From assembly GCA_001917535.1 (NCBI GenBank), contig MNEF01000098.1, positions 45,241 to 109,240 of the forward strand: a DNA stretch of 64,000 bases, in the 5' to 3' direction. Position numbers and translations under genes: made by a program. Within the stretch, counting starts at the first letter, position 1; each line of letters begins with the position of its first letter. Below the pieces are notes generated by a model. It worked only from the letters and a program-made list of their open reading frames with translations. It was not told the DNA's origin and made no database searches. Source of the stretch: Candidatus Rokubacteria bacterium 13_1_40CM_69_27 (GTDB lineage Bacteria > Methylomirabilota > Methylomirabilia > Rokubacteriales > CSP1-6). Below, piece after piece: positions 4,487 through 53,550 of this stretch.

Positions 4487-6345
4487 CAGGCCGGACGCTT
4501 GCCCAGCACGGTGGTCACCACGTGGGTGTCGGCCCGGATCTCAGCGGGGGTGCCGTCGGCGAGCAGCCGCCCCCCGTGGAGGGCGACGATCCGGTCCGAG
4601 TAGCCGAAGACGATGTCCATGTCGTGCTCGACCTGGATGATGGCCTTGATCGCGATGCGCTTGGCCGCCGCCACCAGGACCTCCATGATGGCGTGCTTGT
4701 CCCGCGTGCTGACGCCGGACGTGGGCTCGTCCAGGAGGATGACGTCGGGGTGGAGGGCGAAGGCGCCGGCCACGTCGAGCAGCTTCTTGTCCCCCTGAGG
4801 GAGCGTGCCGGCGAGGCAGGACAGCCGGTCGGCGAACCCGAAGAGCGCCGCCACGTCGCCGACCTGCGCCCGGACCTCCGCGTCGCGCGCCAGCGAGGCC
4901 AGGAGCCGGCGGCCGCGGCCCAGGCGCGAGACGACGGTGACCGCCAGGGTCTCGGCGACCGTGAGCCCCGGGAAAATGTTGACGAGCTGAAAGCTGCGGG
5001 CCAGGCCGAGCCGGACCAGGCGCACGGGCCCGATCCCGGCGACGTCCACGCCCTTGAACGTCACGCGGCCGCTCGACGGCTTTCCCAGCCCGCTCAGCAC
5101 GTTCACCAGCGTCGTCTTCCCGGCCCCGTTGGGGCCGATGATCGAGACGAACTCGCCCTCCCGGACCGCCAGCGACACGCCGTCGAGCGCCACCACGTCA
5201 CCGTAGAGCTTCACCACGTCTCGCGCTTCGATGAGCGGACGTGGGCGAGTGCCTGCAGGTCGGGCGCGTGACGGGAGCGGTTCGTGCGCCGGCTTGGCCG
5301 GCGTATCCACTGGGGAGGTTCGGAGGGGGCCGTGAGGCCCCCGCTGACTAGGGATTCGGAGGGGGCCGTGAGGCCCCCGCTGACGATGGATGTCGGAGGG
5401 GGCCGCCGAGGCCCCCTCCGAATCAAACAATCCCATGAGCCCGCGGGGGAAGCAGATGACCACGATGGCCAGGAGCGCGCCGAAGATGAATCTCCAGTAT
5501 TGCGTCAGGGACATGACCTGGTCCTGCAGGAAGATGAAGACGAAGGCACCCAGGATCGGGCCGAAGAAGTTGGCGAAGCCGCCCAGCAACAGCATGAAGA
5601 CCAGGTTGCCCGAGTGCGTCCAGTACGCCAGCAGAGGATCGGCCAGCCCGGTGGGCACGGCCAGCAGCGCTCCGCCGACGCCGCCGAACACGCCGGCGAT
5701 CACGAAGGCCGCCAGGCGGTAGCACCGCGCGCTCACGCCCACCGCCGCTGCCTTGTCGGGGTTCTCGCGGATCGCCCGCAGGCAGAGCCCGAAGGGCGAG
5801 CGCACGATGCGCCACATGACGACGGTGCCCAGGACCAGCAGCGCCAGCGCGTAGAAGTAGTAGGGGCCGGTGAGAAACTCGACCTTGTCGAGGAAGTCGA
5901 AGCCGCGGCCCAGGAGCTTCGGGCGCAGCACGCGCATGCCCTCGTCGCCCCCGGTCAGGGCGTAGAACTTGAAGAGGAACGAGTAGAAGAGCATCCCGAA
6001 GGCCAGCGTCAGCATGCCGAAGTAGATCTTGACGTAGCGCACGCACAAGAGGCCAGTGGGCACCGCCACCACCGCCGCCACCGCGGCCGCGGATACCAGG
6101 ATGGCCTCGAAGTGCACCATGCCGAAGGCGCTGGTCAGGTAGGCCGCGGTGTAGGCGCCGAGCGCCAGGAAGAGGGCATGGCCGAAGGAGAGCAGCCCGG
6201 TGTAGCCGAACAATAAGTTGAGGCCCAGCAGCGCCAGGCCGTAGCCGAAGAATGGCAGCATCAGGGTGGCGTAGTAGGCCCGGCCGGCGAAGGGCACCAG
6301 CGCCACCGCCAGCAGGGCCAGCCCGAGCGCGCCGCGGCCGATCAC
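4486..6345 (-). CDS. livM-livG: Fused LivM permease / LivG ATPase, joined by an in-frame repeat-derived linker
   Basis: A single frame with no stop runs through both domains. The LivM permease part (GVIGRGALGL ... ICFPRGLMGLFDSEG) starts at the GTG at 6345, overlapping the livH stop (GTGA). The LivG ATPase part (LIEARDVVKLYGDVVALDGVSL...GPNGAGKTTL...LSCLAGTLPQGDKKLLDVAGAF...LLDEPTSGV) follows a 12-aa x2 linker encoded by REP-like units. The 130-aa arginine-rich extension of the tracked ORF (to 6738) is rejected. Confidence 0.7.
   Translation of the reverse strand: MIGRGALGLALLAVALVPFAGRAYYATLMLPFFGYGLALLGLNLLFGYTGLLSFGHALFLALGAYTAAYLTSAFGMVHFEAILVSAAAVAAVVAVPTGLLCVRYVKIYFGMLTLAFGMLFYSFLFKFYALTGGDEGMRVLRPKLLGRGFDFLDKVEFLTGPYYFYALALLVLGTVVMWRIVRSPFGLCLRAIRENPDKAAAVGVSARCYRLAAFVIAGVFGGVGGALLAVPTGLADPLLAYWTHSGNLVFMLLLGGFANFFGPILGAFVFIFLQDQVMSLTQYWRFIFGALLAIVVICFPRGLMGLFDSEGASAAPSDIHRQRGPHGPLRIPSQRGPHGPLRTSPVDTPAKPAHEPLPSRARPAGTRPRPLIEARDVVKLYGDVVALDGVSLAVREGEFVSIIGPNGAGKTTLVNVLSGLGKPSSGRVTFKGVDVAGIGPVRLVRLGLARSFQLVNIFPGLTVAETLAVTVVSRLGRGRRLLASLARDAEVRAQVGDVAALFGFADRLSCLAGTLPQGDKKLLDVAGAFALHPDVILLDEPTSGVSTRDKHAIMEVLVAAAKRIAIKAIIQVEHDMDIVFGYSDRIVALHGGRLLADGTPAEIRADTHVVTTVLGKRPA
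5319..5421. repeat. Three tandem REP-like palindromic units lying in frame inside the livM-livG junction
   Basis: Units of ttcggagggggccgtgaggcccccgctgac at 5319-5348 and 5355-5384 (36-bp period), followed by a perfect palindrome tcggagggggcc gccga ggccccctccga at 5393-5421. Other copies of the same family lie elsewhere in the window. Confidence 0.85.
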
Positions 6346-7202
6346 GCCGCCGCCCTCGCGAAGAGCCCGGCCGGGCGCAGGACGAGGACGGCGATGACGA
6401 TCACGTAGATGCCCAGCATCTCTAGCTCGGGGTAGATCGCGATGGCCACCGCCTTGAGCACGCCCACGATGAGCGCGCCGGCGAACGCCCCGCGCATGCT
6501 GCCGAGCCCGCCGATGACGACGACGGCGAAGGCCTCGACGATCAACTCGATGCCCATCTCGTTCATCGCCGCCGTGGCCGGGATGACGAGCGCGCCGCCC
6601 ACCGTGCCCAACGCGACGCCCAGCGTGAAGACGCGGGAGTAGAGGCGGGGCAGGTCGATGCCCAGCGCTTCGGCCATGCGCGGGTTCTCGGCGGCGGCGC
6701 GAACGAGGCGACCGAAGCGCGTGCGCGTGAGCAGCCACCCCACGGCGGCGGCGATGGTGGCGCCGGCGGCGATGACGACCAGGTTGTAGACGGGAATGGT
6801 GAGGGCGCCGACCTTGAGCTGGCCGTATATCAGATAAACGGAGCCGAGCTGGTGGGGGGCGGTGCCCCAGAAGAACCGGATCACGTCCTCGAACATGAGC
6901 ACGAGGGCGAAGGTGAGCAGGAGCTGGAAGCTTTCGTCGCGGTCGTAGATGGTCCGGAGCAGCCGCTCGACCGGAGGGCCGATCGCGGCCAGGAGGACGC
7001 CGCTCAGGATCAGGATGCCCAGGAAGAGGGATGGCGGGGCGCCAGCCCCCAGGGCCCAGGTGACGAGCGACACGCCGAAGTAGGCGCCCAGCGCGTAAAA
7101 CGAGCCGCAGGCCAGGTTGAGGATCTTCTGGACGCCGAAGACGAGTTGCAGCCCGGCCGCCGCCAGAAAGAGCACGGCGGCATGGAACACGCCGCCGAGC
7201 AC
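6342..7202 (-). CDS. livH: Branched-chain amino acid ABC transporter permease LivH
   Basis: 286 aa, hydrophobic, with a LivH-like N-terminus (IQQSVNIVLGGVFHAAV...GSFYALGAY). The GTG at 7202 is the tracked start. The frame stays open upstream, so the true start may be up to about 60 nt further 5', overlapping the binding-protein stop. Confidence 0.8.
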   Translation of the reverse strand: MLGGVFHAAVLFLAAAGLQLVFGVQKILNLACGSFYALGAYFGVSLVTWALGAGAPPSLFLGILILSGVLLAAIGPPVERLLRTIYDRDESFQLLLTFALVLMFEDVIRFFWGTAPHQLGSVYLIYGQLKVGALTIPVYNLVVIAAGATIAAAVGWLLTRTRFGRLVRAAAENPRMAEALGIDLPRLYSRVFTLGVALGTVGGALVIPATAAMNEMGIELIVEAFAVVVIGGLGSMRGAFAGALIVGVLKAVAIAIYPELEMLGIYVIVIAVLVLRPAGLFARAAA

Positions 7203-7239
7203 GATGTTGACGCTCTGCTGGATCAGGGGCCCGGAATCC

Positions 7240-8511: not shown

Positions 8512-8653
8512 ACCAGCCTCCCTCGGTGTCCGAAGCATTCGTGCCGCCCGCAGGGCGCCTCATTCTAGCGCGCTTGATCGTCAGCGGCCACGGCCAGCAT
8601 GCTAGAATTCGTGACGCCGGCGCTAGAGATTCTGTCCGATCGATGGAGGGCTC

Positions 8654-10894
8654 GTGCACGTACGCTTCTGGGGAACGCGCGGCTCCGTCGCCGCTCCCGG
8701 CCCGGCCACGGTGCGGTACGGCGGTAACACCTCCTGTGTCGAGGTGCGCAGCGACGACGGCACCCTGATCGTGCTCGACTGCGGCACCGGCGCCCGGGCG
8801 CTCGGCCTGCACCTGGCGCGCTCGGAGCCCCAGCCCCTCCGGCTCAACCTCTTCATCGGGCACACCCACTGGGATCACATCCAGGGGTTTCCCTTCTTCG
8901 TCCCGGCGTTCATGCCGGGCGTCGAGCTGAACATCTACGCGCCCGTCGGCTTCCAGCGCAGCCTGGAGGAGGCGATGGCGGGGCAGATGGAGTACGCCTA
9001 CTTCCCGGTGACGCTCCGCGACCTGCGGAGCCGCATCCACTTCACGGAGCTGGACGAGGGCTTCTTCCGCCTGGGCGAGGTGCTGGTCGAGACGCAGTAT
9101 CTCAACCACACCGCGCCCACCATCGCCTACCGGATGTCGGCGGGCGGCGCCACCATCGCCTACACGACCGACCACGAGCCGTTCTGGAAGCCGGCGGGCG
9201 GGGTCTCCGACCATCCGGGCGACCAGAACCACATCACGTTCCTGCGCGGCGCCGATCTCGTCATCCATGACGCGCAGTACAGCGACGAGGAGTACCAGAG
9301 CAAGATCGGGTGGGGCCACAGCCCCGTCGAGTACGCCACCGATGTCGCCCTGGCCGCCGGCGTGCGCCGCCTTGCGCTCTTCCACCACGACCCCACCCAC
9401 GATGACGCCATGATCGAGCGCATGGAAACGGGAGCCCGTGACCGCGCCGCCCGCGCCGGCGGAGGCCTGGAGGTCTTCGCGGCCGCCGAGGGGCTCGAGC
9501 TGCGGGTGGACGGGCGGGGCGCCGCCAAGCCGATCGCGGCGGCCTCGGCGCTCCACCGCCGTCCGGTGGCCGGCGGACGCGTCCTCCTGGTGAGCTCCAA
9601 CGGCAGCGAGATCGCGGCCATCGAGGAGATTCTGGCAGCGGACGATCTGTCGGTGGTCGCAGTGCCGGACATGCGCGCCGCGTTGGCCCGCGGGCCCGAG
9701 GTCGCCCCCGACCTGGCGATCGTCGACGCACGACTGCCCGACGGCGACGGCGCCGCCCTCCTCCGCCCGCTGGTCGAGCGCATGGGGCGACGAAACTTCC
9801 CGATGCTGCTCCTCACCGAGGAGCCGAGCGCGGCGCGGGCGGCCGAGAAGGCCGGCGCGCCCTTCTGCGATTACCTGGCCAAGCCCTTCAGTCCGCCGAT
9901 GCTCCACGCGCGGGTGCGGGCCTGGCTGGCGCGGGCGCTGGCCACCGCGGAGACAGCCAGCCCCGACCGCGCCGAGGTTCGCCGGGCCGACGAGCCCCGC
10001 GATTTCGCCGGCATCCTCGCCCAGTTCCCGCTGTTCCAGCCGCTCGGGGGTGAGCGGCTCCGACATCTGATCCAGGGCGCCACCGAACACGCCTATCCGG
10101 CCGGCCACGTTATCGTCAGCGAGGGCGAGTTCGACGACCGCGTCTTCGTCATCCTCTCCGGGCGCGTCCGCGTGGTCGAGGCGATGGCGGACGCGATGAC
10201 CGAAGCGGTCCTGGGCGGGCTGGGGGAAGGGGAGATCTTCGGCGAGCTGAGCACGCTGACCGGCCGGCCGCGCTCGGCGACCGTCATCGCCATGGAGCGA
10301 ACCCGCTGCCTGGCGCTTCGTCACGAGCGCTTCCTCCAGGCGCTCGAGGGCTCCTCTGAAGTGGCGCTGGCTCTCCTGCGGCTGCTCGCGGGGCGGCTGC
10401 TCGAGGCCGACCGCCGGCTGGCCCGCTACGCTCCCGACACGCTGACCGGTCTGGCCAGCCGCCGCGCGTTTCACGACCAGTACCGGCGGCTCGCCGCCGG
10501 CGCCCGGCGCCGGAAGAGCGGTGTGCTGCTGTTGCTCTTCGACGTCCTGCGTCTGAGGACGATCAACGACCGTTTCGGCTACACGGTCGGCGACGAGGTG
10601 CTGCGCACCGTTGCCGACGCGCTCACCAGCACCACGAGGGCCACCGACCTCGTCGCCCGCTACGGCGCCGACGAGTTCGCCCTGCTCCTGCTGGACACGC
10701 ACGCCGACGACGTCGATCGGGTGCTGCGCCGCGTGGCGGAGAAGCTCGCGGAGCTGTCGGGCCGCCGGGGGCTATCGCTCACCGTGCAGTGCAGCGTCGG
10801 CGTCTCCTTCCGCGAGGTTCCGCCGGACATCGCCGACGAGCTGGTGCGGGAGGCGGACGGAGACATGCGCCGCGGCCGTCTCGTGCCGGCCTGA
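8654..10894 (+). CDS. Four-domain signalling protein: MBL-fold metallohydrolase, receiver (REC), cyclic-nucleotide-binding (cNMP) and GGDEF domains
   Basis: GTG start at 8654 with a GGAGGG ribosome-binding site 5 nt upstream. Residues 1-270 are an MBL fold with the HxHxDH motif GHTHWDHIQG. Residues around 300-410 are receiver-like (DLAIVDARLPDGDG, LLLTEE, YLAKPF), but the acidic pair is replaced (LLVSSNGS). Residues around 440-560 are a cNMP-binding domain (GEIFGELSTLTGRPRSATV). Residues around 575-746 are a GGDEF domain with an intact I-site RATD followed by an A-site RYGADEF (a GADEF variant). Confidence 0.8.
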   Translation: MHVRFWGTRGSVAAPGPATVRYGGNTSCVEVRSDDGTLIVLDCGTGARALGLHLARSEPQPLRLNLFIGHTHWDHIQGFPFFVPAFMPGVELNIYAPVGFQRSLEEAMAGQMEYAYFPVTLRDLRSRIHFTELDEGFFRLGEVLVETQYLNHTAPTIAYRMSAGGATIAYTTDHEPFWKPAGGVSDHPGDQNHITFLRGADLVIHDAQYSDEEYQSKIGWGHSPVEYATDVALAAGVRRLALFHHDPTHDDAMIERMETGARDRAARAGGGLEVFAAAEGLELRVDGRGAAKPIAAASALHRRPVAGGRVLLVSSNGSEIAAIEEILAADDLSVVAVPDMRAALARGPEVAPDLAIVDARLPDGDGAALLRPLVERMGRRNFPMLLLTEEPSAARAAEKAGAPFCDYLAKPFSPPMLHARVRAWLARALATAETASPDRAEVRRADEPRDFAGILAQFPLFQPLGGERLRHLIQGATEHAYPAGHVIVSEGEFDDRVFVILSGRVRVVEAMADAMTEAVLGGLGEGEIFGELSTLTGRPRSATVIAMERTRCLALRHERFLQALEGSSEVALALLRLLAGRLLEADRRLARYAPDTLTGLASRRAFHDQYRRLAAGARRRKSGVLLLLFDVLRLRTINDRFGYTVGDEVLRTVADALTSTTRATDLVARYGADEFALLLLDTHADDVDRVLRRVAEKLAELSGRRGLSLTVQCSVGVSFREVPPDIADELVREADGDMRRGRLVPA

Positions 10895-10909
10895 AGCGGG
10901 CTAGCCCAG

Positions 10910-10983
10910 TCGGAGGGGGCCTTGATGGCCCCCTCCGAAGCCTCCCCCAGGAAGGGGTTGCACCGGCGAAGCCGGCGCTCGAA
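10910..10983. repeat. REP-like palindromic element between convergent genes
   Basis: tcggagggggcc ttgat ggccccctccga at 10910-10938, a perfect 12-bp stem. It is followed by a conserved tail, cctcccccaggaaggggttgcaccggcgaagccggcgctcgaa, which is also seen at 15256-15292. Confidence 0.85.
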
Positions 10984-11030
10984 ACGGCCACCGGTGGTCG
11001 CAGTCGGCCGGCGCCATTCTTCGCAGGCAC

Positions 11031-11774
11031 CTAGCGCCGTCGCTTGCGGCTGACGAACGCCTGGATCAGCTCCCGGGCGGCCGGACTCGTCCTGAGCGCC
11101 GCCCCGTAGGCCTCGGCCTCGGGGCCGCGCCCGCCGGCGCGTAGCATCGCCACGACCGCCTTCGTCGCCGCCAGCCCCACCCGCGGCGCGCGCGCGATGT
11201 CGGCCGCCCACGCCTCGGCGGTGGCCTCCAGTGTGGGCGCCGCCACCACGCGGTTGACGAGTCCCATCCGCAGCGCCTCGCTGGCGTGGATGGTGCGCCC
11301 GGTCAGCAGCAGGTCGCGGCCGTGGGCGCCGCCGGCGACGTCCAGTAGCCGGGCGATCCCGTAGGCGGGGTTGAAGCCGAGCGTCACCTCGGGTAGGCCG
11401 AAGCGGGCGCGGTCGGACGCGATCCTCAAGTCCTGGGCCACCGCCAGCATCAGCCCGCCCCCCAGGGCATAGCCGTCGATCGCCGCCAGCGTCACCTGCG
11501 GCAGGCGCGCGAAGCGCTCCATAAGGGCCGCCTGGCGCCGGGCCAGCGCTTCGGCCTCGTCGGCGCCGAGCGTGGCCATCTCGGTGATATCGTTGCCTGC
11601 GCAGAAGGCGCGGCCCCGCCCGGCAACGACGAGGACGTTGACGTCCTCCATCGCGGTGACGCGTTCGAGCGCCTCCTCCAGCGCGGCCGTGAGCGTGCGG
11701 TTCAGCGCGTTCAGCGCCTCGGGACGGTTCAACCTGAGCCAGGCTACGCCGCGCCCGGTCTCGAGGTCGAGCAT
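11031..11774 (-). CDS. Enoyl-CoA hydratase/isomerase family protein
   Basis: 247 aa reading MLDLETGRGVAWLRLNRPEALNAL...AFCAGNDI...IDGYALGGGLMLA, a crotonase fold. Confidence 0.8.
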   Translation of the reverse strand: MLDLETGRGVAWLRLNRPEALNALNRTLTAALEEALERVTAMEDVNVLVVAGRGRAFCAGNDITEMATLGADEAEALARRQAALMERFARLPQVTLAAIDGYALGGGLMLAVAQDLRIASDRARFGLPEVTLGFNPAYGIARLLDVAGGAHGRDLLLTGRTIHASEALRMGLVNRVVAAPTLEATAEAWAADIARAPRVGLAATKAVVAMLRAGGRGPEAEAYGAALRTSPAARELIQAFVSRKRRR

Positions 11775-12007
11775 CAGGCGCGGGGATGCGGCCGGAGCCA
11801 GGCGAGCGCGGCCAGCGCGACGCCCGCAGCGGCGGCGAAGGGCCAGAAGTTGGTGCGGAAGAACGGGATCGAGAACGCATCGACACCCAGCGGCAGGTGG
11901 GGCCCGTGCTCCTCCAGCGGGCTGACGGTGAGGATGATGACGGTGCGCTGCCGGTCGAGCGCGTCCAGCGCCCGCGTGGACATCTCTTCGAGTCGATGCA
12001 CGCTCAA
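11774..12007 (-). pseudogene. Creatininase-family (creatinine amidohydrolase) N-terminal fragment
   Basis: A 77-aa ORF with a TTG start containing ILTVSPLEEHGPHLPLGVDAF, which matches the creatininase motif (EQHGPHLPLGTD). It then diverges and terminates. Full-length family members are about 250 aa. Confidence 0.4.
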
Positions 12008-13518: not shown

Positions 13519-14057
13519 CTGCCGGCGTGGCGCTTGAGCAGGCTGTCGAAGTCCTCCACCGTCAGGCTCTCCGCCCATTCCACCGCCTCGGAGTCGTGGC
13601 CGTAAGACTCGGCCATGTAGGTCATCGCCTCCCGCTTCGTCGAGAAGAGCCGCCACAGGTGGCCGGGGCCGCCGCCCCGCCGCCGCAGGTGGAAGGCGGG
13701 ATCGGTGGGCGTCTGGGGCTGATAGGTGGTGCGCTGGCCGAAGCGATCCAGGGTGATCCAGGCCACGGCGATACCGTGCGCGGAGAGTACCCGCGTCCTC
13801 AGCGAGTCCTCGGGCGGGAGCGAGTCGATGTCGCGGAGCTGGGGCCCGTAGTAGACGGGGACGCCTTCGCCGGGCAGCGTGAGCCGCGCGCTGAGCGGCT
13901 CGCCGACCGAGTCGAGCAGCGCCTTGGACTCTTCGCTCACCCAGACGAGCCCGGGCGTATAGAGGTCGGCCCACGCCTCGATCACGCTGCCGGCGGGCAG
14001 CAGGGGGCGCCGCCTCGCGATCTCGTCTCCTCCGGCGATGAGATAGAGGCGTCTCAC
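13515..14057 (-). CDS. Hypothetical protein with no recognised domain, embedded in the methylcitrate-type operon
   Basis: The GTG at 14057 overlaps the prpF stop (GTGA) and its stop overlaps the plsC-like start. The protein reads VRRLYLIAGGDEIARRRPLLPAGSVIEAW... Confidence 0.5.
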   Translation of the reverse strand: MRRLYLIAGGDEIARRRPLLPAGSVIEAWADLYTPGLVWVSEESKALLDSVGEPLSARLTLPGEGVPVYYGPQLRDIDSLPPEDSLRTRVLSAHGIAVAWITLDRFGQRTTYQPQTPTDPAFHLRRRGGGPGHLWRLFSTKREAMTYMAESYGHDSEAVEWAESLTVEDFDSLLKRHAGR

Positions 14058-15154
14058 GGAATCCTCACGAACCCTTCCATCAGGCGACGCGCCGTTCGGT
14101 AGACGGTCACGCACTCCGCCCACGGTTGGCCGTCGCGAATGGTCACCGTGGCGGCGACGGGCAGCACGCCCGACGGGTGGCCGAGCCTGAGATCACCCTC
14201 CTTGCCGCCGAGCGCGCATTCGTGGACCACCGTGCCCTCGACGCGGGCGGCCACCGCCAGACACATGGCGGCGGTCAGCGCGAAGGCCCGGTGACAGTTG
14301 CCCATCGACATGACGCGCGCCAGCAGGTCGACCTGGTCGGAGGCGTAGGGTGTCCCGTCGAGCGCCCGGAAGGGCGCGGCCCGAGCGACAACCGCGATCT
14401 TGGGGACGGCGGCGCTTCCGGGAACGCCCATCCGGCCGGCGGCCTCGACCCGGATCGCCTCGAGGCGGGCCCCGACCGCGCGATCGGCATCGATCGCCTC
14501 CGGCGTCTCGGCGCCCGTGAGCCCGAGATCCCGGGCCCGGACGAAGACCACGGGGTTGGTGGCGTCCACCAGCGAGGCCTCCACGCCGCCGACCGCGTCG
14601 CGCGGCCGGCCCGTCGGCAGCAGCCGCTCGGTGGCCGCGCCGCCGGGGTCGAAGAAGTCGAGCGCGATCCTGGCGCCGCTGCCGGGCACGCCGGCCAGCT
14701 CGAAGTCACCTTCCACCGCCGCCTCGCCGTCCTTCACCGGCACGTGGGCCACGATGATCTTCCTGGTGTTCGTGTTGTGGATCCGCACGATCTTCTCGTC
14801 GGCGCCGGCGGGTACGATCTTCTCGTCGATGGCGAACGGGCCGACAGTGGCCGAGCAGTTGCCGCAGTTGCCGGCGTAGTCCACGACGGGGTTCCTCACG
14901 TCGACCTGGGCGAACGTGTAGTTCACATCGGCGTCGGAACGGGTGGGCGGGCCGATGATACACGCCTTGGAGAGCGACGAGATGCCGCCGCCGAGACCGT
15001 CGAGCTGCCGGCCGTAAGGGTCGGGGCTGCCCAGCGCGGCGAGGAGGATGCGATCGCGCGCCGGCCCCGGATGCGGCAGGTCCTCCTCGTGGAAGACGAG
15101 GCACCGGCTCGTCCCGCCACGCATGTAGACGGCCCGGACCCGGCGCTGCGTCAT
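14054..15154 (-). CDS. prpF: PrpF family 2-methylaconitate isomerase (PrpF/AcnD-accessory)
   Basis: 366 aa reading MTQRRVRAVYMRGGTSRCLVFHEEDLP...CGNCSATVGPFAIDE..., the PrpF/methylaconitate isomerase family signature. Confidence 0.8.
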   Translation of the reverse strand: MTQRRVRAVYMRGGTSRCLVFHEEDLPHPGPARDRILLAALGSPDPYGRQLDGLGGGISSLSKACIIGPPTRSDADVNYTFAQVDVRNPVVDYAGNCGNCSATVGPFAIDEKIVPAGADEKIVRIHNTNTRKIIVAHVPVKDGEAAVEGDFELAGVPGSGARIALDFFDPGGAATERLLPTGRPRDAVGGVEASLVDATNPVVFVRARDLGLTGAETPEAIDADRAVGARLEAIRVEAAGRMGVPGSAAVPKIAVVARAAPFRALDGTPYASDQVDLLARVMSMGNCHRAFALTAAMCLAVAARVEGTVVHECALGGKEGDLRLGHPSGVLPVAATVTIRDGQPWAECVTVYRTARRLMEGFVRIP

Positions 15155-15157
15155 ATC

Positions 15158-15298
15158 CTCGGAGGGGGGTTACGCCCCCTTTCCTCCGTCGGAGGGGGCC
15201 GTCGAGGCCCCCTCCGAGATCCCTGGTCGGAAGGGGCCTCGCGGCCTCCTCCGAGCTACCCCAGAGGATTGCGCCGGCGGAGCCGGCGCTCGAAGCGT
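15158..15298. repeat. Cluster of three REP-like units plus the conserved tail, between the aconitase gene and prpF
   Basis: A degenerate unit at 15158-15188, the perfect unit tcggagggggcc gtcga ggccccctccga at 15189-15217, the variant tcggaaggggcc tcgc ggcctcctccga at 15227-15254, and the tail ccccagaggattgcgccggcggagccggcgctcgaa at 15256-15292. Confidence 0.85.
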
Positions 15299-15327
15299 CG
15301 TCGTCCCCCGCGCTGCGACCGATGGGG

Positions 15328-17247
15328 TCATCGCCGAGCGGAGCGGGTGTGGGCGAGGAGCCCACCGGCGAGGAGGATCTCGCGCTCGCGCGGCGTCAGC
15401 ACGCAGGAGGCCGCGAAGCCGCGCCCCGTGCGCGCGTTGACGACGGTCACGCGTGCGCCCGCCGCCAGGGCCGCGCGCAGCCCCTCGAGCCGGAGCCGGT
15501 CGTCGCGCTCGATATCGTCCCCGTCGCCGGGGTCGTCGCAGGTGAGGGGGACGATGCCCCAGTTGATGAGGTTGGCGCGGTGGATGCGCGCGAATGACCT
15601 GGCAATCACGGCGCGGACGCCCAGGTACATGGGCGCGACGGCGGCCACCTCGCGGGAGGAGCCCTGGCCGTAGAGCTCCCCGGCCACGATGATGCCCCGC
15701 CCGGCGGCCTTGGCGCGGGCCACGAACTCCGGGTCGACATACTTGAAGCAGAACTCGGCGATGGCCGGGATGTTCGAGCGGAAGATCAGGATGCCCGCCC
15801 CCGACGGGGAGATGTCGTCGGTCGAGACCTTGTCGCCGAGCTTCAGCAGTACGGGCGCCTCCAGCGTCTGGGCGACGGGCTCGCCGAGCGGGACCGGCTT
15901 GATGTTCGGGCCGCGCGCGACCTCGCCCTGGCCGTCGGCCTCGACCAGCCCGGCCGTCGACGCGGCGAAGCTCGCCGGCAGGCGCAGCGGCGGCTCGGGC
16001 CCGAGCGTGCGCGGATCGGTGATGACACCGGTCAGCGCCGAGGCGGCGGCGACCACCGACGAGCAGAGATAGACCTGATCGTCCTTGACGCCGCTGCGGC
16101 CGGGAAAGTTGCGGTTGAAGGCGCGCAGGCTCTTGGCCCCGCTGGCCGGCACGTGGCCGAGGCCCGGGCACGCGCCGCAGGTCGACTCGGAGACGGTGAC
16201 GCCGGCCTCCAGAAGATCGGTGAGCAGGCCCTCGCGGGCCATCGTTTCTAAAATTCGATGGCTGCCGGGGAAGAGAACGAACGAGACTGATGGGTGCACG
16301 CGGCGGGTCCTCAGAACGGCGGTGACCGATGCCATGTCGTGCCACGAGCCGTTCGTGCACGAGCCGACCATCACCTGCTCGACCGCCGTCCCCGCCACCT
16401 CCTCCACCGGCACCACGCGGTCGGGCGAGCCGGGCAGGGCGATCAGTGGCCCGACGGCGCCCAGGTCCAGCTCGAGCTGATCGTCGTAGGACGCGTCGTC
16501 ATCGGGCGCGGCCGGCCGCCAGTCGGCGCCGCGGCCGAGCCGCGACAGGTACGAGCGCGTGACCTCGTCGCTGGGAAAGACGCTCGTCGTGAGCGAGAGC
16601 TCGGCGCCCATGTTGGCGATGGTCATGCGCTGGGCCACCAGCAGGCTCTGGAGGCCCGGGCCGGCGTACTCGAAGATCTTGCCGCTCCCGCCGTGGACGC
16701 TCAGTCGGCGCAGCAGCTCGAGGATCACGTCCTTGGCGGTGACCCATGGACGCAGGGCGCCGCTCAGCCAGACGCGGACGACGGCCGGCATCGTGAAGAA
16801 GTAGGGGCCGCCGCCCATGGCCACCGCCACGTCGAGGCTGCCGGCGCCGATGGCGAGCATTCCCACCGCCCCGCAGAGCGGTGTGTGGCTGTCGCTGCCC
16901 AGCAGCGTCTGCCCCGGCACCGAGAAGGTCTCGAGGTGCACTTGATGGCAGATGCCGTTGCCGGGCTTGGAGAAGGTGGCGCCGTACTTCCGCGAGGCGG
17001 TGCCGAGATAGCGGTGGTCGTCGGAGTTCCGCGAGTCGAACTGGTAGACGTTGTGGTCGATGTAGGTGACGACCCGGGGGGCGGCCACCCGCTGGAAGCC
17101 CAGCGCCTCGAACTGGAGGAACGCCATGGTGCCGTTGGTGTCCGTCAGGAGGATCTGGTCCATGGCCAGGCCGATTTCTTCGCCCACGTCCAGCTTGCCG
17201 GCGGCCAGGTGGCTCCCGATCAGCTTGTGGGTGAGGCTCCGGCCCAT
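15328..17247 (-). CDS. Aconitase-family hydro-lyase (fused large and small subunit; candidate 2-methylcitrate dehydratase)
   Basis: 639 aa with an aconitase catalytic domain (GICHQVHLE..., GSDSHT, VGSCTNGSWHDM) and a C-terminal swivel domain. It lies between prpC and prpF. Confidence 0.8.
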   Translation of the reverse strand: MGRSLTHKLIGSHLAAGKLDVGEEIGLAMDQILLTDTNGTMAFLQFEALGFQRVAAPRVVTYIDHNVYQFDSRNSDDHRYLGTASRKYGATFSKPGNGICHQVHLETFSVPGQTLLGSDSHTPLCGAVGMLAIGAGSLDVAVAMGGGPYFFTMPAVVRVWLSGALRPWVTAKDVILELLRRLSVHGGSGKIFEYAGPGLQSLLVAQRMTIANMGAELSLTTSVFPSDEVTRSYLSRLGRGADWRPAAPDDDASYDDQLELDLGAVGPLIALPGSPDRVVPVEEVAGTAVEQVMVGSCTNGSWHDMASVTAVLRTRRVHPSVSFVLFPGSHRILETMAREGLLTDLLEAGVTVSESTCGACPGLGHVPASGAKSLRAFNRNFPGRSGVKDDQVYLCSSVVAAASALTGVITDPRTLGPEPPLRLPASFAASTAGLVEADGQGEVARGPNIKPVPLGEPVAQTLEAPVLLKLGDKVSTDDISPSGAGILIFRSNIPAIAEFCFKYVDPEFVARAKAAGRGIIVAGELYGQGSSREVAAVAPMYLGVRAVIARSFARIHRANLINWGIVPLTCDDPGDGDDIERDDRLRLEGLRAALAAGARVTVVNARTGRGFAASCVLTPREREILLAGGLLAHTRSARR

Positions 17248-17249
17248 GC

Positions 17250-31342: not shown

Positions 31343-31540
31343 GACATCCTGTGTCAACCTTCGAATTGCATGCAGCGGCCACGCGCTGGGCGGCACAGTG
31401 AAGCATGACGTCGTAGGGACGGCGGTCTTGCCAGCAGCGCCACAGGACGCGAACTCACGCGCGGGCCAGGACGCGGATCGCGTGGGGATGATGGCAGCCC
31501 CGCCGGCGTGCGGCGGCGTAGATCGCCGCCGCCCAGGGCC

Positions 31541-31569
31541 TCGGAGGGGGCCGTCGAGGCCCCCTCCGA
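31541..31569. repeat. REP-like palindromic element
   Basis: tcggagggggcc gtcga ggccccctccga, a perfect 12-bp stem, lying between convergent genes (the permease and the ferredoxin-like protein). Confidence 0.85.
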
Positions 31570-31573
31570 CTGG

Positions 31574-31885
31574 CTAGCGCGAGGCCAGGTTGTCGTCGAT
31601 GACCGCCGCCAGACAGTTCAGGGCGCCGATCGAGTAGACGTATGTCTTCCAGCCGATCGCCACGTGATCCCCGCGCTCGCCCGGCCGCGGGGCGCGGTAA
31701 ATCGTCACGCCGACGTTCGGTCCCCTCCCCGTGCAGCCACCGGCGCAGCCCTCGCGCACGCGCACGACGTCCGCGAGGTTGCGGTCGGCGACGAGCGCCT
31801 GGAGATGGCGCGCGATCGCCCGGGCGTCCATCGGCACAGGCCGGCCGCCCCGCCGGAGGGGCAGCGTCACGGCCCCCGGCTCCAT
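31574..31885 (-). CDS. Thioredoxin-like [2Fe-2S] ferredoxin family protein (putative)
   Basis: The start is the ATG at 31885 (MEPGAVTLPL). It reads REGCAGGCTGRGPNVGVTIY...VAIGWKTYVYSI. The start may lie further upstream so as to include a fourth cysteine. The tracked N-terminal extension is rejected. Confidence 0.45.
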   Translation of the reverse strand: MEPGAVTLPLRRGGRPVPMDARAIARHLQALVADRNLADVVRVREGCAGGCTGRGPNVGVTIYRAPRPGERGDHVAIGWKTYVYSIGALNCLAAVIDDNLASR

Positions 31886-38739: not shown

Positions 38740-38771
38740 GGCCCGCCCCGCGAGATCTCCGCGGGGCGGGC
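38740..38771 (+). terminator. Perfect 13-bp GC hairpin after the glycine-zipper gene
   Basis: ggcccgccccgcg agatctc cgcggggcgggcc. Confidence 0.4.
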
Positions 38772-38845
38772 CTGTGTCGCCGGGTCGATCGCCCCTCGTT
38801 GGTAAGATGAATGCAAGGATTCTGTGTCCATGGGGGAGGTTGGCG

Positions 38846-41363: not shown

Positions 41364-41455
41364 CCGCCTTCACACCCGAACTCCCGGCGGCGCCAAGAAA
41401 TGCCGCCAACGCCGCCCCCGCATCGCGGCACATGTTTTGCTCCGCTCGCTCAGCG

Positions 41456-42244
41456 ATGGTGGTTCGGCGCTGCGTCTGGCATCGCAAGTATCGCGGGTAC
41501 CCCCTCGTGTACGGCGTCGCCTCGTGGCGCGACCCGAGCATCGCCTTCAGCGATGGCATCTGCCGCCGGTGCACCGTCCGCCTGCGGGAGGACCTGCGGT
41601 TTCCCCCTCACGTGGTGGACTCGGCGCCGGAGGCGCCGGCGTGGGAGCCGCTGGTGCCGGGGACCGCGGTCGCGCTCGCCGTCATCGCGACGCTGCTGAT
41701 CGTCACGCAGCCCCTCGACGCGCCCCCGCCGGCGCGGATCGTGACGCCCGAGCCCCCGCGGGCCGTTGTCGACGCGGCCCTCGATCGCGCGGTCCGGATC
41801 GAGTCGCGGGGGGTGAGCCGGCCGGGCCCGCACCGAACCGTCACGACGAGGTCCAAGGCAGACGAGTCGGCGCTGCCGAGAGCGGCGGTGGCGATGCGTC
41901 CAGGGCGGCCTCTCCTCGCATCGGCAACGGGGGCCCGCCCGGCAGCCGCGAGCCCGCCCGGAGTGATCGCGTTCAACGACCGCGCGGCCGCGGGCGCCGG
42001 GTTGGGGATGCAGGCCCCCGAGGTCATCGAAGGGGGCCTCGACGCCCCCTGCGAGCCTCTCCCAGAGCCGATTGCGCCCGCGAAGCCGGCACTCGAACCG
42101 CGGTTACTCCGACAGCCCCTAGCCGACGCGGCGCCGCCTCAGGCGTGCGAGGGGCCGGCGGTGTCCTCGGCGCGCACCGGCGTCCGGCCACGCAGGAAGT
42201 CGAAGTCGCAGCCCTCGTCGGCTTGCAGCACGTGGTCGAGGTAG
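41456..42244 (+). CDS. Hypothetical Cys-rich membrane protein with a Pro-rich tail
   Basis: It starts MVVRRCVWHRKYRGYPLVYGVASWRDPSIAFSDGICRRCTVRL, a C-x2-H...C-x2-C zinc-ribbon-like module. This is followed by one TM helix (AVALAVIATLLIV) and then a long Pro/Ala-rich region whose 3' end overlaps the convergent dehydratase gene by about 100 nt. Confidence 0.35.
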   Translation: MVVRRCVWHRKYRGYPLVYGVASWRDPSIAFSDGICRRCTVRLREDLRFPPHVVDSAPEAPAWEPLVPGTAVALAVIATLLIVTQPLDAPPPARIVTPEPPRAVVDAALDRAVRIESRGVSRPGPHRTVTTRSKADESALPRAAVAMRPGRPLLASATGARPAAASPPGVIAFNDRAAAGAGLGMQAPEVIEGGLDAPCEPLPEPIAPAKPALEPRLLRQPLADAAPPQACEGPAVSSARTGVRPRRKSKSQPSSACSTWSR

Positions 42245-44717: not shown

Positions 44718-44756
44718 TGCCGGGCCAACTGACTTCCCCGTGGTGGTGATGTACTG

Positions 44757-45935: not shown

Positions 45936-45941
45936 TGGGTC

Positions 45942-47375: not shown

Positions 47376-47410
47376 GCGCGCGTCGGACTAAGCTCCGTTA
47401 ATAGGCAGAG

Positions 47411-47683: not shown

Positions 47684-47746
47684 CCGGCGATTGGAGCGGC
47701 CCGACGTAGAGCCGTTCGAGCGCGGGCTTCGCCCGCGCAATCCTTG

Positions 47747-47787
47747 CTGGGGGAGGTTTCGGAGGGGGCCGTCGAGGCCCCCTCCGA
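47747..47787. repeat. REP-like palindromic element (full unit with leader)
   Basis: ctgggggaggtt tcggagggggcc gtcga ggccccctccga, lying between convergent genes (the small membrane protein and the DJ-1 gene). Confidence 0.85.
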
Positions 47788-47792
47788 CTAGA

Positions 47793-48374
47793 TCACACCG
47801 CCGAGTAGGCGCGGTACTCCATCTGGGCGGCGATCTCCTCGCGGGCGGCGGCGCCCCAGAACCTCTCGACCAGGTAGAGCCCGAGGTCGAGCGCCGAGGC
47901 GACGCCCCCCGCGGTGACCACCTGCCCCTCGTCGACGATGCGCCGGTCGGTGACGACCTCGCGACAGTAGGGACGGAGAAGGTCGTAGGCCCGGTGATGC
48001 GTGGTCGCCCGCCGGCCAGCGAGATAGCCGGCCTTGCCGAGCAGCAGCGCGCCCGTGCAGACCGACGCCAGCGGGCGCCGGGGCCCCCACGATTTCAGAT
48101 AATCGATCAGGCGCGCGTCGTTGACGAGGGCGCGCGTGCCGAAGCCGCCCGGGACGTAGAGGAGGTCGAAGGCGGCCAGGTCCTCGTAGACCGCGTCGGG
48201 CCTGATCAGGAGCCCGGTCTCGTCCCCGATCTCGGCATCCGTCCCGATGATCCGGTGGGTCACAGCGGGGTCGATCCCCATGGTGGCCACGCGTCGCAGC
48301 GCGTCGTAGCCGCCGATGAAGTCGAGGAAGGTCAGGCGCGGGAACACGAGGAAGGCGATGCGCTTGATGGCCAT
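47793..48374 (-). CDS. DJ-1/PfpI family protein (class I glutamine amidotransferase-like)
   Basis: The start is the ATG at 48374 (MAIKRIAFLVFPRLTFLDF). It has the nucleophile elbow ASVCTGALLLG. The tracked N-terminal extension is rejected. Confidence 0.8.
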   Translation of the reverse strand: MAIKRIAFLVFPRLTFLDFIGGYDALRRVATMGIDPAVTHRIIGTDAEIGDETGLLIRPDAVYEDLAAFDLLYVPGGFGTRALVNDARLIDYLKSWGPRRPLASVCTGALLLGKAGYLAGRRATTHHRAYDLLRPYCREVVTDRRIVDEGQVVTAGGVASALDLGLYLVERFWGAAAREEIAAQMEYRAYSAV

Positions 48375-48379
48375 GGCCG

Positions 48380-49602: not shown

Positions 49603-49675
49603 GGGGCGGGCCCTCGCAGTATGCTCGGAATCGGTTCCTATCTTACGCGAAGTCCTTCGGGCGATGGAGGGTGGA

Positions 49676-50701
49676 ATGCCGATGCCGAGGATCGCCGCCG
49701 TGGCGACGGCGACGCCCCCCTACCGGTTCACGCAGTCCGACCTGCTGGCGCTGTCCGGCTACACCGACGCGCAGCGCCGCGGCTTCTTCGAGCGCAGCGA
49801 GATCGAGAGCCGCTTTCTCTACATCGACCCCCGGCGCTTCCGTCCCGACGAGAGCGTGGATGAGCTGCAGGACCGCTTTCGGCGCGGCGCGCTGGAGCTC
49901 TCGGAGGCGGCGGCGCGGGGGGCGCTGGCGCGGGCCGGCTGGACGGCGGGCGACGTGGACTTCGTGGCCACCACCACCTGCACCGGGCGCCTCACCCCCA
50001 GCCTGGACGCTCACCTGATCGGGCGCCTCGGCTGTCGGGCCGACGTCCAGCGCGCGCACATCGGTGACACCGGCTGCGCCTCCGCGATGGTGGCGCTGCA
50101 GCAGGCGTGGAATCATCTCCACGCCTTCCCGGAGCACCGCGCGCTCGTGGTGGCGGTGGAGATCTGCTCGGCCGCGTACTTCCTCGATCAGCGCCTGGAG
50201 TCGGCGGTCGCCCACGCCATTTTCGCCGACGGCGCCGGAGCCCTGGCGCTGTCGGCTACCGGCCAGGGCCCTGCCGTCGTGGCCCACCGCACGCTCTTCA
50301 GACCCGAGCATCTCGACGCCATGGGCTTCGAGTATCCCGGCGGCCGCCCCCGGGTGGTCCTCTCCAAGGACGTGCGTCGCATCGGCGCCGGCATGCTCGA
50401 CGAGATGACGAAGGTGTTGATGGACGCGCAGGGGCTCAAGCGCGAGGATATCCGCCACTGGATCCTGCACTCGGCGGGGCGGCGCGTGCTCGATCGCGCG
50501 CGCGTGCTGCTCGCGCTCACCGAGGAGCAGATGGCGCACGCGCGGGCGGTGCTGAGAAAGTACGGCAACATGTCATCGGCGACGATCCTCTTCGTGCTCG
50601 AGGAGATGCTACGCGCCGAGTCGACGGTGCCGGGCGACTGGGGGCTCATGATCGGCCTCGGGCCCGGGTTCGCGGCCGAGGGCGCCCTGCTCAGATGGTA
50701 G
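49676..50701 (+). CDS. Type III polyketide synthase (chalcone/stilbene synthase family)
   Basis: It has the Cys-His-Asn triad context (TTTCTGRLTPSLDAHL, GCASAMVALQQA, ILHSAGRRVL, GPGFAAEGALLRW). The ATG at 49676 has a GGAGGG site 4 nt upstream, with alternatives at 49664 and 49682. Confidence 0.85.
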   Translation: MPMPRIAAVATATPPYRFTQSDLLALSGYTDAQRRGFFERSEIESRFLYIDPRRFRPDESVDELQDRFRRGALELSEAAARGALARAGWTAGDVDFVATTTCTGRLTPSLDAHLIGRLGCRADVQRAHIGDTGCASAMVALQQAWNHLHAFPEHRALVVAVEICSAAYFLDQRLESAVAHAIFADGAGALALSATGQGPAVVAHRTLFRPEHLDAMGFEYPGGRPRVVLSKDVRRIGAGMLDEMTKVLMDAQGLKREDIRHWILHSAGRRVLDRARVLLALTEEQMAHARAVLRKYGNMSSATILFVLEEMLRAESTVPGDWGLMIGLGPGFAAEGALLRW

Positions 50702-50824
50702 TGCGAGCCGCAGGACGGCCGGGGGCGGGGGCCCCCGCGTCCGAGGCGAGCCGATGAATCGAGTGGTGCGAGCCGCAGGACGGCCGGGGGCGGGGGCCCC
50801 CGCGTCCGAGGCGAGCGGTGTCCC

Positions 50825-52698: not shown

Positions 52699-52771
52699 AG
52701 CTTCGGGCGGGGGCGCTCCCGGCCTAAGCTAGCGCTGGTGCCGCTCTCTAACCTCTTCCGAGGAGCCGACG

Positions 52772-53437
52772 ATGGCGAGGTCTGCTGACAACCTGCCGCG
52801 GAGATTCGGCAAGCTCCCCACGCCCGCTGTCACCGACGTGATGGACGAGATGGGGCTGCCGCGGCAGACCCTGCCGTCCACGATCCAGCCCCTCACCGCC
52901 GACATGCGCCTGGCCGGTTACGCGTTCACCGCGCGGGGCCGCCCGCATCGAGGCCCCCCGCGCGAGCGCGATCAGACGCTGCGGCAGTTCTTGAAGATGC
53001 TGGGAGCGGTACCCAGCGACTCGGTCCTCGTGCTGGCGGCCAACGACAACATGGCCGCCCACTTCGGCGAGCTGTCCGCCCACTGGTTCCGCGCCCGGCG
53101 CGTGCGAGGGGCCGTGATCGACGGCGCCACCCGGGACGCCGCCGCCATCGGCCGGCTCCGCTTCCCGACCTTCGTGCGCTACCGCACGCCTCAGGACTCG
53201 GTGCCGCGCTGGCGGGTGACCGACTGGGGGCTGCCGCTGACCATCGGGGGGGTGCGCGTGAGCCTGGGCGACATCATCGTTGCCGACGTCGACGGCGTCG
53301 TCGTCGTCCCCCGCCGTGTCGCCCACCAGGTGCTGATCCGCTCCGAGAAGCTCGTGGGGGCCGAGAACAAGGTGCGTTCCGCCGTGCGCCGGGGGATGAC
53401 GCCGCTGCAGGCGTACGAGAAGTTCGGGAGCTTCTAG
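52772..53437 (+). CDS. RraA family protein (RNase E inhibitor/4-hydroxy-4-methyl-2-oxoglutarate aldolase fold)
   Basis: 221 aa reading AVIDGATRDAAAI...DGVVVVPR. There is a GAGGAG site upstream of the ATG. Confidence 0.75.
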   Translation: MARSADNLPRRFGKLPTPAVTDVMDEMGLPRQTLPSTIQPLTADMRLAGYAFTARGRPHRGPPRERDQTLRQFLKMLGAVPSDSVLVLAANDNMAAHFGELSAHWFRARRVRGAVIDGATRDAAAIGRLRFPTFVRYRTPQDSVPRWRVTDWGLPLTIGGVRVSLGDIIVADVDGVVVVPRRVAHQVLIRSEKLVGAENKVRSAVRRGMTPLQAYEKFGSF

Positions 53438-53484
53438 CGGCGTGTTGGAGTACGCACCGGATCTGGACTCCTCCCGTTCGAGCG

Positions 53485-53550
53485 CCGGCTTTGCCGGCGC
53501 CACCTGTTCCTGGGGGAGGTTTCGGAAGGGGGGCGAAGCCCCCCGCCGAG
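53485..53550. repeat. REP-like element (variant) plus a short hairpin
   Basis: gccggc ttt gccggc at 53485-53501, then ctgggggaggtt tcggaagggggg cgaa gccccccgccga at 53510-53549. It lies between convergent genes (the RraA-family gene and the M23 peptidase). Confidence 0.75.

Follow-up and report, generated by a model that had tools for sequence, protein, structure and literature searches.

A GC-rich palindrome that recurs in a 64,000-nucleotide stretch of the genome of Candidatus Rokubacteria bacterium 13_1_40CM_69_27 (contig MNEF01000098.1; hereafter "the window", meaning the whole stretch that was analyzed) is one module, hairpin B, of an oriented two-hairpin composite of about 75–120 bases. 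We consider it probable, at roughly 0.7, that this composite is a non-coding, non-autonomous, modular interspersed repeat of the Rokubacteria/Methylomirabilota that resembles the repetitive extragenic palindromic (REP) sequences and bacterial interspersed mosaic elements (BIME) and supplies stem-loops to the 3′ ends of genes. Mobility is the best-documented property of the family.

The consensus was built from 41 aligned copies taken from the window and from public assemblies; its 5′ half reads 5′-nnnn TC GGAGGGGGCC TCGAC GGCCCCCTCC GA rr CCTCCCCCAG, and its 3′ half continues after the linker with 5–20 variable nucleotides and TT GCGCCGGC rAA GCCGGCGC TCGAA-3′. In the orientation that we call forward, that is, from B to A, the modules follow one another in the order of 3–5 variable nucleotides, hairpin B (TCGGAGGGGGCC-TCGAC-GGCCCCCTCCGA, a 29-nt unit with a 12-bp stem), the linker CCTCCCCCAG, a short variable spacer, hairpin A (GCGCCGGC-rAA-GCCGGCGC, with an 8-bp stem and a 3-nt loop), TCGAA, and a tail. 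The linker is C-rich, strongly conserved, and unpaired in the predicted folds, and an attenuator-like switch between it and the 5′ arm of B was rejected, only five G-C pairs being possible. Hairpin B is present in one to three copies per element, the additional units being direct tandem copies (three units at both 5.3 kb and 15.2 kb), and about 8 of 117 metagenomic copies have a further hairpin, module C (CGGTCGTCGCACGGCTTCGCCGTGCTCC), separating B from the linker. Beyond TCGAA the tail is heterogeneous, from 0 to about 100 nt long and made of optional modules, with at least two recurrent types, X (GCGGAACACC...) and Y (GGTnACTCCGACGCGCTCC); given this heterogeneity, the idea of a single conserved third module 3′ of A was dropped. 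The family thus has a constant B end and a variable opposite end. By direct reading, all six frames of the consensus lack stop codons.

This anatomy replaces the stand-alone REP unit of 29–41 bp assumed in the preliminary description of the window with an asymmetric composite of two hairpins and further optional modules. The same description had noted a leader (CTGGGGGAGGTT) and a conserved tail (CCCCAG...GCCGGCGCTCGAA) beside the palindrome; the segment is indeed there, with the palindrome at every locus, but the two are one segment seen on opposite strands.

The pattern TCGGAGGGGGCC-N3-7-GGCCCCCTCCGA has five matches in the window (at 5393, 10910, 15189, 31541, and 47759), all with a loop of N5, and none in 100 dinucleotide-preserving shuffles. 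The recurrence of the palindrome is therefore real, although only three of the 29-mers are identical (15189, 31541, and 47759), not six as had been stated, and five have a perfect stem. Degenerate B units lie at 5320–5347, 5356–5383, 15158–15186, 15226–15254, 42027–42054, and 53522–53549, which brings the total to 11–12 units in seven loci. Hairpin A, searched for as TTCGAGCGCCGGCTTCGCCGGCGC with up to three mismatches, gave six sites in the window against 0.01 expected; each of them adjoins a palindrome, and one is at 42.0 kb. A covariance model (R1) made from the 41-copy alignment and run without speed filters on the 64 kb matched exactly seven loci. Six of these had been named before and held on re-reading, degenerate units included; the seventh, at 42023–42101, had been overlooked.

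Folding of intact copies gave the predicted structure (z-scores between −3.5 and −6), in accordance with what had been expected of the family from the outset. In hairpin A, C-G/G-C swaps occur at two pairs (in 11 and 9 of the 41 sequences) with zero one-sided changes, a pattern matched by 0 of 500 shuffles; these 41 copies had been chosen for a perfect B. Among the copies chosen for A, hairpin B is 96% paired, and six of its pairs are changed on both sides, against 0.5 in shuffles. The mismatches that B has accumulated on the forward strand are 26 A.C/C.A and 7 G.T/T.G, and, as A.C mismatches are wobble pairs on the opposite strand, this spectrum is a hint that it is the A-to-B strand on which the hairpin matters. 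In a smaller first set, the same comparison of G.U with A.C mismatches (6 vs 10) gave no signal.

The mobility of the family emerges from a comparison of the window with three syntenic relatives (L113/L117, L114/L116, and L115, with 88%, 90%, and 95% IlvD identity to the window, respectively), made with R1 without filters and by reading the sequences. The IlvD of the window itself is 100% identical to that of Candidatus Rokubacteria bacterium 13_1_40CM_69_27. At the aconitase–prpF junction, a 173-nt insert in the window is flanked on either side by ATGAC(G/C)C.A, about 5–9 nt being duplicated, and L113 and L114 are empty, with overlapping ATGA stop and start codons. The spacer between the genes for RraA and peptidase M23 is empty in L116, where it measures 12 nt (TAG gcggccgggcga CTA), and is occupied in opposite orientations elsewhere, B adjoining the M23 stop codon in the window and the RraA stop codon in L115 and L117. 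In the 3′ spacer of ilvD, L116 and L117 have a strong forward copy that starts at the ilvD stop codon, the window has a decayed reverse copy, and L115 has an unrelated segment and no copy. The spacer between the genes for enoyl-CoA hydratase and a GGDEF protein is filled in the window only, the orthologous spacers of L113 and L114 holding no copy, and L117 is filled at 14999–15079, where the window and L115 have a different palindrome and L116 has neither. The site orthologous to the 31.5-kb copy is filled in L115–L117, with two copies tail to tail in L115, and the livM-livG site is filled in all, with two tandem copies in L113 and a decayed one in L114. Empty, filled, and inverted states at the same spacers thus mark a mobile, or at least a rapidly turning-over, repeat, and turnover on the time scale of species divergence is the best-supported account of them.

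The spacers compared also contain other elements. In L115, the ilvD 3′ spacer holds a segment some 75 nt long (11780–11853) that is relatively rich in AT and is bounded by TTCCAAC ... GTTGGAA. A different element, with inverted arms of about 32 nt (CCCGACGGAGGCGCGCGGTTCGGGGGCCAGGG ... CCCTGGCCCCCGAACCGCGCGCCTCCGTCGGG) some 90 nt apart, lies in the enoyl-CoA hydratase/GGDEF spacer of L113 (5277–5440). In the window, an unrelated perfect 13-bp GC palindrome (GGCCCGCCCCGCG-AGATCTC-CGCGGGGCGGGCC) common to L115 lies in a co-directional spacer at 38740–38772. Positions 50698–50816 hold two 54-nt direct repeats, 98% identical, 65 nt apart, and each with the palindrome CCGGGGGCGGGGGCCCCCGCGTCCGAGG; they are a different small repeat, located between a gene that ends at 50701 and one that starts at 50825.

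Outside the window, more than 200 copies were retrieved, nearly all of them from Rokubacteria/Methylomirabilota assemblies, plus soil metagenomes. A scan with the core of B, with one genome per species, gave more than 112 loci, and the matches that also bear the linker and A come almost all from Candidatus Rokuibacteriota/Methylomirabilota metagenome-assembled genomes. B-like hairpins of Streptomyces, Micromonospora, and others have neither linker nor A and were set aside as generic GC hairpins outside the family. A metagenome scan anchored on the linker and A, and hence blind to B, returned at least 120 loci; among the matches listed, B lies upstream with the same sequence and the same loop orientation in about 100 of 117 metagenomic copies. 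The density is 1–6 copies per 22 kb in the syntenic relatives and about one per 5–10 kb in the regions examined. Full composite copies were also met on two contigs labeled otherwise, namely, L018 (uncultured Alphaproteobacteria), a 319-kb contig whose label was taken as given, and L048 (Acidobacteria), a 5.8-kb contig from the same soil study that may be mis-binned.

A search of viral contigs for the junction of B and the linker found no copy, so a phage origin is not indicated. The whole 64 kb had no match in Rfam at the gathering thresholds, and in a permissive search the top match of the best copy was a weak one, of 17 bits against a threshold of 38. In the searchable literature, there was no account of the repeat content of Rokubacteria/Methylomirabilota or of this element, and a search for Rokubacteria together with REP and another for the core decamer yielded nothing but unrelated sequences, human ones among them. 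As judged from these sequence comparisons, the family appears to be specific to the Rokubacteria/Methylomirabilota and to fall into no described family that could be found.

The position of the copies relative to genes was determined with a simple caller of our own based on GC content at third codon positions (GC3), the calls in the window being checked against Pfam. In the window, the element is present in five of the eight convergent spacers and in two of the 38 co-directional ones but in none of the nine divergent ones, in line with the bias toward gene ends that had been expected. The four loci previously placed between convergent genes (10.9, 31.5, 47.7, and 53.5 kb) do lie there, as does the overlooked 42.0-kb locus, and the two others are, as described, in the aconitase–prpF spacer and in frame in livM-livG, within a 619-aa open reading frame (ORF).

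The context was also counted for 96 copies not selected on a perfect B, 72 of which are fully flanked. Gene ends lie on both sides in 32 copies; a gene end on the B side is combined with a gene start on the A side in 21, the reverse holds in 19, and gene starts on both sides occur in 0. None of the 72 is thus located between divergent genes (p ~ 3e-6 if divergent spacers are as common as in the window), and 8 of the 96 copies are inside called ORFs. The B end is invariably close to a gene boundary, with a median distance of 4 nt to a stop codon (49 of 60 within 0–9 nt) and of 14 nt to a start codon; spacing on the A side is wider, the corresponding medians being 47 nt and 64 nt. Because the unit usually takes up the entire spacer, B comes to lie some 4 nt from a stop codon or about 1–16 nt from the next start codon. 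In a Ser-Ser-Arg tRNA cluster (L083, 189–595), the element is located between the two tRNA-Ser genes, and B begins 6 nt beyond the encoded CCA end of tRNA-Ser, which indicates that the placement is independent of translation.

Of 51 genes whose stop codon adjoins B, 26 end in TAG, compared with 174 of 569 genes elsewhere (odds ratio 2.4, p = 0.004), and TAA stop codons are likewise enriched next to B. Of 126 copies, 33 have CTAG no more than 14 nt from B, in most cases 4–5 nt away and hence at the junction. Just outside B, beyond the variable 3–5 nt of the junction, CTAG is about 70-fold enriched, its frequency in all fetched Rokubacteria DNA (about 1.5 Mb) being 0.0003 per nt. In the window copies at 10906 and 47791, the true stop codon is TGA, yet CTAG stands between it and B, and several copies have CTAG at both ends. 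The element may therefore have a target preference for (C)TAG, which in these genomes would be met mostly at gene ends, and such a preference would account for both the 3′-end location and the TAG bias. The tetranucleotide itself is roughly eight-fold under-represented relative to about 0.003 per nt, a rough estimate from base composition, and many of the occurrences read in the fetched DNA are stop codons in a CTAG context.

To characterize the junctions, the 30 nt 5′ of B were compared with the 120 nt 3′ of TCGAA in 126 copies, with permuted pairs as a control. In 12 of the 126 copies, against 3.1 expected, there were direct repeats of 8 nt or longer with the upstream copy ending no more than 8 nt from B. 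Nine of them are 8 nt long, and the others measure 10 nt (L139), 16 nt (L147, GAACTGCTGGGCTAGA), and 18 nt (L237, CGATCGTGACCTCTGCTT). The upstream repeat ends 3–5 unconserved nucleotides before TCGG in every case, and CTAG or CTAGA closes several of the repeats. The start of the downstream repeat varies between 0 and 103 nt past TCGAA, which means that the tail belongs to the inserted DNA and that this end of the element is not constant. The usual unit is a single B-linker-A; inverted doublets are not the rule, and tail-to-tail pairs are occasional (L115).

In the account that we prefer, a REP/BIME-like repeat of this phylum, spread would need a trans-acting enzyme that recognizes the hairpins, on the A-to-B strand as the mismatch spectrum suggests, and that prefers gene ends containing (C)TAG. 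The inserted unit would then be transcribed within a 3′ untranslated region or an intercistronic spacer, where its two very stable stem-loops could act as 3′ barriers or as weak stops independent of a U-tract, as in the enterobacterial REP/BIME. In the A-to-B orientation, the conserved CTGGGGGAGG together with the junction could supply a Shine–Dalgarno sequence to the downstream gene. The element would be tolerated, and perhaps retained, for its stable 3′ stem-loops and sometimes for a ribosome-binding site.

Several points weigh against this account. The repeat-defined ends share no terminal inverted repeat, and the direct repeats vary in length and are recognizable in only about 10% of the copies. 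A tblastn search of about 1 Mb of fetched loci with IS200 TnpA and the E. coli REP-associated tyrosine transposase (RAYT), a search of limited sensitivity because both query sequences were approximate, gave nothing below E = 1. The gene calls in the fetched loci come from the simple GC3-based caller. Copies in co-directional spacers show no preferred orientation with respect to transcription (21 vs 19), which argues against a strictly strand-specific RNA function. The preference for the A-to-B strand is only suggestive, since 14 of the 26 A.C mismatches come from one 14-copy subfamily (TCGAAGG), and the role at the RNA level is one that we infer.

A possible, if doubtful, alternative is that the element is a miniature inverted-repeat transposable element (MITE) mobilized in trans by an IS481-like DDE transposase with a preference for CTAG and a duplication of about 8 bp; IS481-family elements insert at NCTAGN. 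The predominance of direct repeats of exactly 8 bp (9 of 12), the CTAG or CTAGA with which several of them end, the enrichment of CTAG just outside B and its presence at both ends of several copies, and the excess of TAG stop codons beside B would all follow the pattern of such an enzyme. The absence of terminal inverted repeats, the end opposite B, which varies in sequence as well as in position, and the repeats of 10, 16, and 18 bp speak against it, and no parent insertion sequence (IS) with matching ends was seen in any locus read. Nor are the copies the terminal repeats of a larger IS, a possibility raised in the preliminary description: none such occurs in about 250 loci.

A true REP/BIME system, in which single-stranded REPs are excised and inserted by a RAYT (an HUH Y1 transposase) encoded elsewhere in the genome, looks unlikely. 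It would fit short, high-copy GC palindromes at gene 3′ ends and in no divergent spacers, a BIME-like mosaic architecture, and a hairpin that is better kept on one strand (the 26 A.C against 7 G.T mismatches), as for a one-strand substrate. What is missing is the conserved head of the GTAG type: GTAG occurs within 14 nt in 11 of 126 copies, and the 4 nt before TCGG are not conserved. The units do not form inverted REP doublets, no Y1 transposase was matched in the low-sensitivity tblastn search of about 1 Mb, and flanking direct repeats of 8–18 bp are present, which to our knowledge are not a feature of transposition of the RAYT/IS200 type. The earlier assignment to the REP/BIME type holds for the repeated palindromes at gene 3′ ends; the GTAG head and the regular inverted doublets that mark REP/BIME are missing. 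An IS200/IS605-derived element with two subterminal hairpins (PATE) was also considered and is unlikely, A and B being unrelated in sequence and target duplications being present.

The element might instead be a cis-acting device linked to translation, in which a stable hairpin 4–5 nt past a mostly UAG stop codon modulates termination, read-through, or coupling and, in the other orientation, CUGGGGGAGG and the hairpin form a split ribosome-binding site, with the start codon 0–9 nt after B. We regard this as distinctly improbable. The tight spacing between B and the stop codon, the TAG/TAA bias beside B, the strong conservation of the linker, and the lack of stop codons in six frames, with one copy read through as a LivM–LivG linker, agree with it. 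In several reverse copies, moreover, a putative start codon lies 0–9 nt after B, which leaves no room for another Shine–Dalgarno sequence, so that only the conserved CTGGGGGAGG upstream of the hairpin is left as a ribosome-binding site; these start codons are only putative. The same placement is found 3′ of a tRNA gene, the spacing is equally explained by B being the terminal module of a spacer-filling insert, and the TAG bias by target preference.

Very improbable in our estimation are spread by a copy-out process through RNA or single-stranded DNA, such as target-primed retroposition of the type of short interspersed nuclear elements (SINEs), and a stop-codon-adjacent hairpin that is selected as a termination or read-through signal. 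Read on the A-to-B strand, the element has a constant 3′ end (B with 3–5 variable nucleotides) and a 5′ end of variable extent; together with the variable flanking duplications (8–18 bp), this is the signature of target-primed, SINE-like retroposition. The unconserved "filler" bases at the junction and the better preservation of the hairpin on that strand agree with such a process, which we do not know to have been described for a bacterial intergenic repeat.

The reading that the copies are vertically inherited terminators or attenuators, alike by selection rather than by spread, is largely refuted by the empty and filled sites: the constant position at gene 3′ ends, the unrelated GC-rich hairpins that take the same place in other spacers (e.g., at 38740–38772 in the window), and the age of the livM-livG copy, orthologous across relatives about 70% identical, would favor it, but near-identical 75-nt sequences, unpaired parts included, recur at unrelated loci in many assemblies, presence, absence, and inversion are seen at the same spacer among relatives, target duplications exist, and there is no U-tract.

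A canonical intrinsic terminator was likewise ruled out. No T-run follows either hairpin on either strand, no element was among the results of a scan for hairpins with T-runs, and such sites are at chance level in the window. The element shares with intrinsic terminators a GC-rich stem-loop directly after a gene and differs from them by the lack of a U-tract in either orientation and by copies within operons and ORFs; the copies retained in an operon, in an ORF, and in a tRNA cluster cannot stop transcription efficiently. Of the role first proposed, as terminator or mRNA stabilizer, the canonical terminator is thus excluded, and a non-canonical terminating or a stabilizing function may be envisaged.

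Within the window, the best-preserved copy lies at 47711–47791 on the minus strand (R1 95.9 bits; two-hairpin fold with z = −4.0) and is also found in L115. Reading along the minus strand, the stop codon of the DJ-1/PfpI gene (47793–47795) and CTAG are followed by B (47759–47787), the linker (47747–47756, which reads CTGGGGGAGG on the plus strand), A (47720–47738), and TCGAA (47715–47719). The copy 3′ of the GGDEF/cNMP response-regulator gene occupies 10906–11034 on the plus strand (R1 92.6 bits for 10906–10987). The stop codon of that gene is at 10892–10894, CTAG at 10902–10905, B at 10910–10938, the linker at 10941–10950, A at 10960–10978, and TCGAA at 10979–10983, after which a 47-nt tail reaches the CTAG at 11031–11034 that holds the stop codon of the convergent enoyl-CoA hydratase gene, so that CTAG stands at both ends of the copy.

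The 173-nt insert between the genes for aconitase (15328–17247, minus strand) and prpF (14054–15154, minus strand) occupies 15155–15327 on the plus strand and therefore runs from A to B relative to the operon transcript. It scores 62.3 bits (15223–15298) and 42.8 bits with R1, with extra B units back to 15154, and consists of a B-like unit (15158–15186), B (15189–15217), B′ (15226–15254), a decayed linker, A (15271–15289), TCGAA (15290–15294), and a 33-nt tail. The copy inside the livM-livG junction (5277–5425, minus strand; R1 49.2 bits for 5277–5351, with B units up to 5425) comprises B (5393–5421), two 36-nt tandem B′ units (5356–5383 and 5320–5347), the linker (5310–5318), A (5286–5304), and TTCGTG (5281–5286).

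In the convergent spacer between RraA (plus strand) and peptidase M23 (minus strand), the copy at 53473–53553 on the minus strand (R1 67.3 bits) has a B′ variant (53522–53549) 5 nt from the M23 stop codon (53555–53557), the linker at 53510–53519, A at 53482–53500, TTCGA at 53477–53481, and a 39-nt tail that reaches the CTAG of the RraA stop codon (53434–53437). The copy 3′ of a 103-aa gene (31574–31885, minus strand) lies at 31501–31573 on the minus strand (R1 44.8 bits; z = −5.2); its B (31541–31569) is 4 nt from the CTAG stop, the linker is absent, and an A-like hairpin, GCGGCGGCG-TAGATC-GCCGCCGC, is found at 31510–31532.

The decayed copy at 42023–42101 on the plus strand (R1 53.6 bits) folds no better than shuffles. 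It retains B (42027–42054), the linker (42055–42065), A (42074–42092), TCGAA (42093–42097), and a Y-type tail (GGTTACTCCGAC), its A side pointing to the ilvD stop codon (42139). The hypothetical gene convergent with ilvD (window 41432–42244, plus strand) has CTC where L115 has a stop codon (CTA on the shown strand), and consequently the window ORF 41432–42244 continues through the decayed element; the GC3-based caller found no confident gene in 41364–42138.

In its role and genomic ecology, the family is like REP/BIME or BOX; its sequence and architecture match none of the known systems. With the REP/BIME of Enterobacteria and Pseudomonas, it shares short, many-copy GC palindromes at gene 3′ ends and in convergent spacers, the avoidance of promoter-only spacers, mosaics with accessory motifs, and tolerance inside operons; E. 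coli REPs within operons stabilize the upstream mRNA. It differs from them in having no sequence similarity and no GTAG head, in its two unlike hairpins in fixed order, in its flanking direct repeats, and in the immediate proximity of B to stop codons, among which TAG is favored. BOX of Streptococcus pneumoniae, RIME of rhizobia, and ERIC are likewise intergenic and built of ordered modules with a stable predicted structure, one module occurring in variable tandem number (in BOX, boxB is present in 0–8 copies). This likeness is one of architecture only, as no sequence homology was found (Rfam), and those elements belong to hosts of another phylum, whereas the present one is shorter and much more GC-rich, with a constant B end and a variable other end.

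As MITEs such as the Correia elements and Nezha, the repeat is short, non-autonomous, high-copy, and insertion-polymorphic, with target duplications at some copies; unlike them, it has no terminal inverted repeats, a duplication length (8–18 bp) that appears not to be fixed, and no visible parent IS. Mycobacterial interspersed repetitive units (MIRUs) also occupy the intercistronic spacers of operons, can form tandem copies, and can be in frame or overlap with the stop and start codons on either side, for which the aconitase–prpF and livM-livG copies may be compared. MIRUs are, however, direct tandem repeats without the two-hairpin structure, and their sequence is unrelated.

The effects on neighboring genes are most evident at livM-livG, where the element lies in frame in the 619-aa ORF (4486–6345, minus strand) and encodes ...SEGASAAPSDIHRQRGPHGPLRIPSQRGPHGPLRTSPVDTPAKPAHE.... 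This ORF has a LivM permease domain (residues 28–295) and a LivG ATPase domain (387–543), with the element between them; the linker of about 50 residues is element-encoded. Fused orthologues (P0002–P0007), 70–91% identical, keep "AKPALE", translated from A, and "SEGG...GPL", translated from B; in other relatives, LivM is a separate protein of about 340 aa. The retention of the translated modules in the fused orthologues indicates an old insertion that gene callers, at least, read as a linker. At aconitase–prpF, the prpF ATG lies 4 nt from the last unit, and the insertion junction gives rise to GAGGA 4 nt ahead of it. In L237 (4323–4582, minus strand), the 18-bp target duplication splits two formerly overlapping genes, and the inserted tail places AGGAAGGAG-N7-ATG before the downstream gene in the place of the original GTG start context.

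The Rokubacteria/Methylomirabilota are abundant uncultivated soil bacteria with large genomes, for which the element is usable as a phylum-specific marker. Being stop-free in six frames, it misleads gene callers, and it likely breaks or mis-joins metagenome assemblies. The constant end, the variable end, the variable duplications, and the apparent CTAG preference together point to an as yet unassigned insertion mechanism. In these genomes, the element shapes the ends of genes; it can split overlapping genes apart and provide them with new ribosome-binding sites, and it can fuse adjacent ORFs, as in LivM–LivG.

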